Below are positions 49,598-50,347 of a DNA stretch of 64,000 nucleotides, piece by piece. The notes beneath the pieces are model-generated. The model made no database searches. It was not told the DNA's origin and was given only the letters and a program-made list of their open reading frames with translations. Location of the stretch: the NCBI RefSeq assembly GCF_058153355.1, contig NZ_CM177019.1, one strand, 5' to 3'. Numbering within the stretch: the stretch's first letter is position 1; each line of letters starts with the position of its first letter. Position numbers and translations under genes: made by a program.

Positions 49598-50347
49598 AAT
49601 CAGCATTCACGTATCAGGAAGAGTTAAGGGTACAAGGGGTACTCGATGGCGGTCTATATTTCACGACTAACGCCATTTCAAGAAAGAAGTGTGGTGGGTG
49701 GTTTCGAATGAGGGCTGGTGTTTTGGTACGTGGCACGCCACTGCAATGTATTTATCCATCAGTACTCATTCAAAAGTACCTGGAAAAAATGCCCGCTATG
49801 CCAAGCGGGCAAATTGCTTACATGTGGAATTAAGTAATTAACGATAAAGCCAGAGTATTATCATTTATTATACCCATTCATTTAATCAGGTTAATTACTC
49901 AAATCACTGAACTATTCTCTGTTCGCTCACTTATGCTGAGTGAGTACCACGACCAATGTATGTAGAACAATGCCGTAGAGTAAGGATGAAATGTCTCTGC
50001 CACGCCTTAAACATCTACTACTGACTAGAACCGCCGTCGCATGCAGAAGAGTCTTGTGAGCGTTACAGGAGTCTGGCTTTGCTCATTAATCAACGCTATT
50101 TAGATATAAATTTCTAACACTCGAAAAATGATTTTCACTAATAAATTATAACGGGTGGTTTTTATCATACAGCGAAATAACCTTTTGTTTATTAAATTTA
50201 ACATTCCTGTGCTAAATTAATTAAAAGTACCATGTATAGCATATGAAGCTGTTAATGCCAGCAATTGTCTCAAATGAGCGATTTTTTATAGTGACAAACA
50301 ATAATAACATTAAAAATAATCATGTGACATTAACTGAGGAAAAGACA

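Follow-up and report, generated by a model that had tools for sequence, protein, structure and literature searches.

Between the tRNA gene ileY and the open reading frame ypjCB of Escherichia coli there is a G+C-rich hairpin that, on the strand opposite to the tRNA gene, runs directly into six thymines, and the question raised by this locus is what a terminator-like signal is doing where no gene leads into it. A first-pass annotation, made from the sequence alone, had described the hairpin as an orphan and proposed that it could end an unannotated small RNA or be a relic from a deleted gene. Our analysis suggests that the hairpin block is probably an unannotated terminator or sRNA-like unit of a known kind, and it adds to the earlier observation a conserved block, an allelic polymorphism and a plus-strand structure. 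The whole stretch of DNA analysed, called the window throughout, is 64,000 nucleotides long (contig NZ_CM177019.1 of assembly GCF_058153355.1). The segment concerned is E. coli chromosome in the orientation opposite to that of MG1655, and window positions 49500-50150 are converted to MG1655 coordinates by subtracting them from 2,835,359.

Results

The ileY gene, encoding tRNA-Ile2 (anticodon CAU), was placed at 49522-49597 on the plus strand by ARAGORN and Rfam. It is followed by a fast-evolving spacer (49598-49695), by a single-copy, unannotated, non-coding block of about 225 bp (49696-49919), and further on by ypjCB, an intact open reading frame that starts at 50243 or 50348 and ends at 51802. 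The site of the hairpin carries no annotation in MG1655 or in the other listed RefSeq E. coli genomes, and a cmscan of positions 47000-53000 against Rfam 15 (E<=10) returned the tRNA as its sole match, the hairpin block matching no family. Literature searches with ileY and ypjC, with ileY and sRNA, and with the names of the intergenic region found no RNA named at the locus. The earlier statement that no credible minus-strand open reading frame precedes ypjC holds, the longest one between the hairpin and ypjCB being of 34 amino acids.

The neighbours vary among strains. In the window ypjCB (50243-51802) is one intact frame of 484-519 amino acids; K-12 has it divided into ypjC and ypjB, and several other strains carry frameshifted versions. 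The ygaQ gene, of the alpha-amylase family (46709-48962, minus strand), consists of three open reading frames in the window, as in K-12, and is intact elsewhere, with 750 amino acids. A promoter-like TAGATA-16-TATCAT at 49286-49313, with hexamers equal to those listed for ileY by Shimada 2014, precedes the tRNA gene by about 200 nt, implying a long leader. Prophages have integrated inside ileY, with the crossover at about 49551, near the anticodon-loop side, and homology resuming at 49551/49552 (loci L084, L085, L087 and L099). In strain 98219 homology stops exactly at the 3' end of the tRNA, with a prophage next to it, and another strain (locus L007) carries an IS5 in the ileY-ypjCB spacer at about window position 50028.

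On the plus strand, AAAAAA at 49784-49789 is followed by TGCCCGCTATGCCAAGCGGGCA at 49790-49811; the minus strand reads TGCCCGCTTGGCATAGCGGGCA across the hairpin and then TTTTTTCC, with UUUUUUCC directly after the hairpin stem. The 6-bp G-C stem described earlier beside the A-run was confirmed, and it extends to 8 pairs (6 of them G-C) closing a 6-nt loop (49790-49811, minus strand), with predicted energies of -15.0 (minus strand) and -14.6 kcal/mol (plus strand). The T6 run at 49784-49789, which would be the U-tail of a minus-strand RNA and is an A6 linker on the plus strand, is invariant in 82 of 82 sequences. The stem-loop has the size and stability of an intrinsic terminator, and the U-tract that such a terminator needs is present on the minus strand (U6 at the stem), whereas the plus strand continues past the hairpin with AAAUUGCUU and has none. 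All sequence features of the textbook minus-strand intrinsic terminator originally proposed (stem, loop and U6) are present, and judged by them the hairpin is a real intrinsic-terminator-shaped stop signal for leftward (minus-strand) transcription. A terminator of ileY itself, or a bidirectional terminator, was rejected as the primary reading because of the missing plus-strand U-tract.

A stringent search of both strands of the 64-kb window (perfect stem of at least 7 bp with at least 5 G-C pairs, loop of 3-8 nt, T6 at most 1 nt away) found 2 sites, compared with 0.01 +/- 0.10 expected from 100 dinucleotide shuffles. A loose scan was close to chance (3 found, 1.7 +/- 1.3 in shuffles). The other stringent site of the window, at 21080-21099 on the minus strand, has an 8-bp stem, a 4-nt loop and T6.

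The hairpin region is carried by 3087-3094 of 5426 complete E. coli genomes (57%), always in one chromosomal copy. A blastn search with word size 11 found the block at a median of 1 place per genome, no second copy was found within the window, and the phage and plasmid collections held no homologue, three 'plasmid' matches being chromosomes. Seventy-two metagenome contigs containing a common adjacent 24-mer, together with nine genomes, gave 30 haplotypes over 49598-49870, and the 12 distinct haplotypes over 49694-49853 (160 nt) were used for the tests of structure. Two contigs of the metagenome set represent an E. albertii lineage, the species having been identified from a protein name; ten more E. 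albertii loci, retrieved via YkgM and so independently of the block, all contained it, and the block showed zero variation within this E. albertii sample.

In the comparison of these two lineages, E. coli and E. albertii, the most conserved part is a core at 49782-49851 (minus strand) with 69 of 70 positions identical (98.6%), where the 24-mer 49814-49837 had to match in the first E. albertii retrieval and the other 46 core positions hold one change. This single difference is A49803G in the hairpin loop; the stem, the T6 and the 46 nt upstream are all kept. Identity to the window is 93.4% in ileY, 86.0% at 49696-49781, 67.6% at 49852-49919, 39% with indels in the spacer between ileY and the block, and 34-68% for the flanks overall, the flanking ygaQ genes sharing about 67% of their DNA and 60% of their protein sequence. 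The latter value makes the E. albertii ygaQ homologue unusually divergent for a gene of this species pair. Within E. coli the core varies only at 49794, at 49808 (rare) and at 49846 (a singleton), and outside the stem it is essentially invariant in about 3000 genomes, next to the highly polymorphic positions 49869-49876. The hairpin thus lies within the best-conserved 70 nt of its neighbourhood, which rules out a chance hairpin and strongly disfavours an inert relic.

The gene order in E. albertii is smpB, (prophage), ykgR, ykgM, ykgO, block, ileY (convergent), a ygaQ-like gene and csiD, with no ypjCB. Homology between the two species stops at about window position 49919, and the genes on the ypjCB side differ, so that the block (49696-49919) has been inherited together with ileY regardless of the genes on the other side. 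In both species, sequence scans found no plus-strand terminator-like site between ileY and the block, and no other leftward-facing terminator-like site between the variable side and ileY. In OV24, an E. coli that lacks the block, csiD (glaH) adjoins ssrA-smpB, and in E. marmotae GCA_019841255.1, which lacks ileY, ygaQ and the block, a P4-like satellite (psu, ogr/delta, alpA, primase) adjoins csiD. The database held members of the ygaQ family from E. coli and E. albertii and no others. An outgroup search with YpjCB against genome contigs gave nothing beyond a contaminant contig from E. coli K-12; DEQI01000374.1, filed as a Planococcaceae MAG, carries the MG1655 haplotype of the locus and is almost certainly E. 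coli K-12 contamination.

The stem itself is polymorphic in E. coli. Position 49794 is C in the window and in E. albertii, giving a perfect hairpin, and T in MG1655. With T, the minus strand has an A.C mismatch and its hairpin weakens from -15.0 to -8.8 kcal/mol, and the plus strand has a G.U pair and changes from -14.6 to -12.4 kcal/mol. Because E. albertii has C, T is the derived allele; exact 81-mer counts gave 1730 genomes with T and 989 with C among 3087 carriers. Conservation of the hairpin across strains, on which the original proposal had been made to depend, was observed, and it extends to E. albertii; about two thirds of the E. coli carriers, K-12 included, have the mismatch in the minus-strand stem. 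A second and rarer stem change is G49808A, and in strain 100248 an IS3-family element sits inside the hairpin loop (equivalent to window 49797-49801; locus L102). Together, the majority mismatch, G49808A and the IS3 insertion mark the stem as the least protected section of the core. It has also been reported that, during the evolution of gallium resistance, one MG1655 population carried a G>A change at MG1655 2,785,563 at 19% (PMC6928379); this corresponds to C49796T in the stem, which turns a stem pair into a further A.C mismatch when read on the minus strand and into G.U when read on the plus strand.

Only 2 nt from the T-run, and back to back with it, lies an imperfect hairpin of 86 nt (49696-49781) with 32 pairs, whose 7 G.U pairs on the plus strand would be C.A mismatches on the minus strand. 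When this long hairpin and the G+C hairpin were taken together (40 pairs), 99.0% of pairs were formed on the plus strand across haplotypes, compared with 82.5% on the minus strand, and the consensus energies were -56.5 and -33.5 kcal/mol, respectively. The single-sequence minimum free energy was -60.4 kcal/mol (z -4.5) for the plus strand and -41.9 kcal/mol (z -2.5) for the minus strand. Of 15 transition differences in paired columns, 13 are compatible with pairing on the plus strand alone (two-sided binomial ~0.007). No double compensatory change was found in the 40 pairs among the haplotypes, and since no pair changed on both sides a shuffle control for the pairs is uninformative. The long hairpin is clearly a plus-strand, ileY-sense structure. 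The strand bias stems from it; strand-specific structure of the kind expected of a tRNA trailer RNA is not demonstrable for the G+C hairpin alone, whose count is 1:1 (49794 versus 49808). Read coverage past ileY is low in MG1655, at 30 reads per 800 nt, and it falls in a Rho-dependent manner about 28 nt after the tRNA (Adams 2021).

A search for minus-strand promoters, as the first-pass annotation had suggested, yielded two candidates, but in DNA as rich in A+T as this region such matches are no more frequent than by chance (13 found, 12.9 expected). The first is a -10-like GATAAT at 49857-49862 (minus strand), invariant in E. coli and E. albertii, with a poor -35 (3/6 match). Its predicted start, at 49850/49851, about 7 nt downstream of the hexamer, coincides with the edge of the core, and on the minus strand the perfect conservation (the loop difference aside) runs from 49851 to 49782, two bases beyond the U-tail. 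The second, TTAACC-16-TATAAT (49867-49894, minus strand; 10/12), occurs in MG1655 as well as in the window; it varies within E. coli, 18 of 82 sequences having CATGAT, and E. albertii lacks its -10. From either start, the candidate minus-strand RNA would be 67-77 nt long and would consist of an A/U-rich body of about 40 nt (GGCUUUAUCGUUAAUUACUUAAUUCCACAUGUAAGCAAUUU), the hairpin and U6. Conservation is limited to this predicted body and terminator, as in an sRNA gene (98.6% in the core, compared with 67.6% in the segment upstream, which bears the promoter candidates and is moderately conserved, and 86% downstream). The same segment (49852-49919) contains the hexamers of a plus-strand ypjC promoter, TTATCA-18-TTTAAT (Shimada 2014), here with a 17-nt spacer, and GATAAT is, on the plus strand, part of that TTATCA. 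The conserved GATAAT may therefore be kept as the -35 of the ypjC promoter instead of as a minus-strand -10. It has been shown that the RpoD holoenzyme binds the ileY-ypjC spacer in vitro and that H-NS is also found there (Shimada 2014). A search of the promoter segment for Fur and Zur boxes gave background scores, and the candidate sRNA was predicted to pair with the regions around the translation starts of ygaQ, ypjCB, ykgM and ykgR no better than shuffled seeds did.

Evidence on expression was taken from the tables of Adams 2021 and refers to MG1655, a strain with the weak allele. They contain an 'orphan' bicyclomycin-sensitive 3' region at 2,785,647, in the sense of the minus strand of the window, for which the upstream and downstream read counts were 55 and 19 in untreated cells and 114 and 154 with the drug; minus-strand coverage is low, at 55 reads per 800 nt. 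This position is window 49712, about 70 nt past the U-tail, which puts a Rho-dependent end about 70-140 nt downstream of the hairpin. An orphan Rho-dependent 3' region downstream of the hairpin indicates that the minus strand is transcribed across the hairpin site in K-12, and the minus-strand RNA downstream of the hairpin is mildly richer in C than in G. Thus, the earlier suggestion of an unannotated minus-strand transcript is upheld in that such a transcript exists in MG1655, but it ends by Rho and beyond the hairpin. Mapping of 3' ends, the check that had been put forward, went against the proposal: curated MG1655 Term-seq from three conditions (Adams 2021) has no 3' end at 2,785,570-577(+) in this weak-allele strain, and the mature ileY 3' end alone is listed nearby. 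The claim that the hairpin ends a small RNA is supported by a conserved -10-like hexamer whose distance upstream would give an RNA of 67-77 nt, and the Term-seq result counts against it.

In E. albertii, a minus-strand unit does lie upstream: ykgMO is 364 nt upstream of the hairpin, and no other canonical terminator follows ykgM-ykgO on the minus strand. The ykgMO unit has its own conserved hairpin about 60-100 nt past ykgO, and the ykg homology ends 245 nt before the block hairpin. Between K-12 and E. albertii, compensatory changes keep the pairing of the post-ykgO hairpin (GTTGGTG/CACCAAC versus GCTGG/CCAGC), and its T-run, TTTTCC in K-12, has been lost in E. albertii.

Discussion

The explanation that we favor, with a probability of about 45%, is that the hairpin would be the working minus-strand terminator of a small promoter-to-terminator, sRNA-like unit, leaky in T-allele strains, where Rho would complete termination. 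The unit would start at about 49851, or at about 49860 via the strain-specific TATAAT, and end at about 49784, with the 46 nt before the hairpin, which are perfectly conserved, as its body. In addition, the hairpin and T6 may halt transcription coming from the variable ypjCB side ahead of a head-on run into ileY. The 86-nt hairpin past the U-tail would then be part of the opposite, ileY-sense transcript, and the block would hold the 3'-end elements of two convergent transcripts, back to back. The C>T change at 49794 may weaken the terminator in most E. coli, including K-12, leading to read-through and then to termination by Rho a little further on. We infer that the promoter may fire, that a discrete small RNA may accumulate and that the unit may have some regulatory role.

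Enterobacterial sRNAs usually consist of an A/U-rich body, a terminator hairpin and a U tail. The Rho-independent terminators of Hfq-type sRNAs resemble the block in the G+C stem, the 6-nt loop, the U6 and the A/U-rich 40-nt body upstream, and the genes of such sRNAs resemble it as free-standing intergenic units with their own -10-like box in which conservation spans the predicted start to the U-tail. In contrast to these genes, the block has no Rfam family, a weak -35 and a majority allele with a stem mismatch, and it is known here from its sequence. The backing of intrinsic terminators by Rho, as seen for orphan and antisense transcripts in acquired, H-NS-bound DNA, is a further parallel, since the spacer is flagged by H-NS and the 3' region is sensitive to bicyclomycin; to our knowledge, such terminators are usually not conserved between species, whereas the block hairpin is kept in two.

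Convergent-gene terminator regions and bidirectional terminators have been described from the mapping of 3' ends in E. coli. The locus is similar to the former, with ileY pointing rightward, the orphan or ykgMO unit pointing leftward, and the 3'-end structures 2-8 nt apart. A true bidirectional terminator is one hairpin between an A-tract and a U-tract, from which the locus differs in that the G+C hairpin lacks a U-tract on its plus side and the other strand has a long hairpin of its own. The block may therefore be two convergent back-to-back 3'-end elements, or it may be one plus-strand ileY trailer RNA.

The latter explanation, the main rival, is possible, though we regard it with some doubt. 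Here the G+C hairpin would be a domain of a single RNA extending from ileY, with the long hairpin (49696-49781), the A6 linker, the G+C hairpin and an A+U-rich tail to about 49851, and its appearance as a minus-strand terminator would be incidental. Several observations are consistent with this: the plus strand folds far better by minimum free energy, consensus energy, paired fraction and the 13 of 15 transitions, the majority T at 49794 forms a G.U pair on the plus strand, the interval from ileY to the block is without a terminator in both species, and the block is co-inherited with ileY whatever lies on its other flank. However, the strand bias comes from the long hairpin, the count for the G+C hairpin being even, and the sequence past the latter provides no plus-strand U-tract and hence no 3'-end signal. 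It is also improbable that an A6 linker would by chance form exactly the U6 tail of a hairpin on the opposite strand, the MG1655 coverage past ileY is low and Rho-sensitive, and the sharp edge of conservation at 49851 is left unexplained. Trailer RNAs of tRNA operons are known, such as 3'ETS-leuZ from glyW-cysT-leuZ and rtT from the tyrT operon, and they end at the intrinsic terminator of the operon or accumulate as defined processing products. The block is like them in being conserved and non-coding, in following the tRNA on the same strand without a terminator in the interval, and in having a strand-specific long hairpin. It is unlike them in lacking the plus-strand U-tract and in its low K-12 coverage, and neither a defined 3' end at a terminator nor accumulation was seen in MG1655, where the mature ileY 3' end is the only one listed.

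It is unlikely that the hairpin is a functionless leftover, the terminator of an ancestral minus-strand unit such as ykgR-ykgM-ykgO that was stranded when E. coli acquired ypjCB/ypjA. The relic of a deleted gene that had been considered at first gains from the presence of ykgR-ykgM-ykgO upstream in E. albertii, with the hairpin as the sole canonical terminator downstream of ykgM-ykgO. Furthermore, the stem is decaying in E. coli (the T majority, G49808A and the IS3 insertion), K-12 has no mapped 3' end at the hairpin, and the ygaQ-ileY-block region is dispensable, being missing from 43% of E. coli genomes. Against this, a relic would not hold identity at 69 of 70 positions when the flanking spacer has 39% and a flanking gene about 67%, ykgMO possesses a hairpin of its own and its homology stops 245 nt short of that in the block, and the core outside the stem is near-invariant in about 3000 E. 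coli genomes beside the polymorphic 49869-49876.

Quite improbable, in our estimate, is an arrangement that would combine both strands into a sense/antisense RNA pair, in which a minus-strand sRNA of about 67 nt would face an ileY trailer stabilised by the 86-nt 5' hairpin, with mutual titration or cleavage. The sRNA body would be perfectly complementary to the ileY read-through trailer, which recalls the 'sponge' idea for 3'ETS in a cis-encoded form, and 49794 C/T would set how much of the termination is intrinsic and how much depends on Rho.

We consider it very improbable that the hairpin is coding sequence of a small plus-strand protein of 39-41 codons, or of a 14-codon micro-ORF from 49789. 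All three plus-strand frames run uninterrupted to stops that the two species share, frame b begins with GTG in E. coli and ATG in E. albertii 4 nt past GAGG, and the core variants at 49794 and 49803 are both synonymous in the MPAMPSGQIAYMWN frame. These two sites share a codon position in any frame because they are 9 nt apart, and the frames are open because the DNA itself is conserved. The pN/pS ratio is 1.24 in the 39-codon frame and 0.33-0.48 in the others, with 11 changes each, and the E. coli polymorphisms are mostly non-synonymous in every frame. Protein coding was therefore rejected, none of the three frames having a signal of purifying selection. Scarcely credible is a dispersed palindromic repeat (REP-, BIME- or ERIC-like), a mobile-element end or a chance hairpin: the imperfect palindrome, the island-rich region and the adjacent tRNA used as a phage integration site would fit, but the block is single-copy by sensitive blastn, missing from the phage and plasmid collections and without a repeat in the window, which led to rejection of a dispersed repeat for want of many copies, prophages cross over within the tRNA, at about 49551, and not at the block, and the shuffles exclude chance.

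If a small RNA is made from the minus-strand unit, it would be an undescribed, species-spanning sRNA in K-12, a genome that has been heavily mined for sRNAs, and it would probably have been overlooked on account of the weakened terminator allele of K-12 and the H-NS-bound region. If nothing is transcribed, the strong conservation of the core still needs an explanation. The natural C/T polymorphism provides a ready means of testing how a single mismatch in the stem moves termination from the intrinsic to the Rho-dependent mode, and the back-to-back layout bears on how a tRNA gene in acquired DNA is insulated from convergent transcription.
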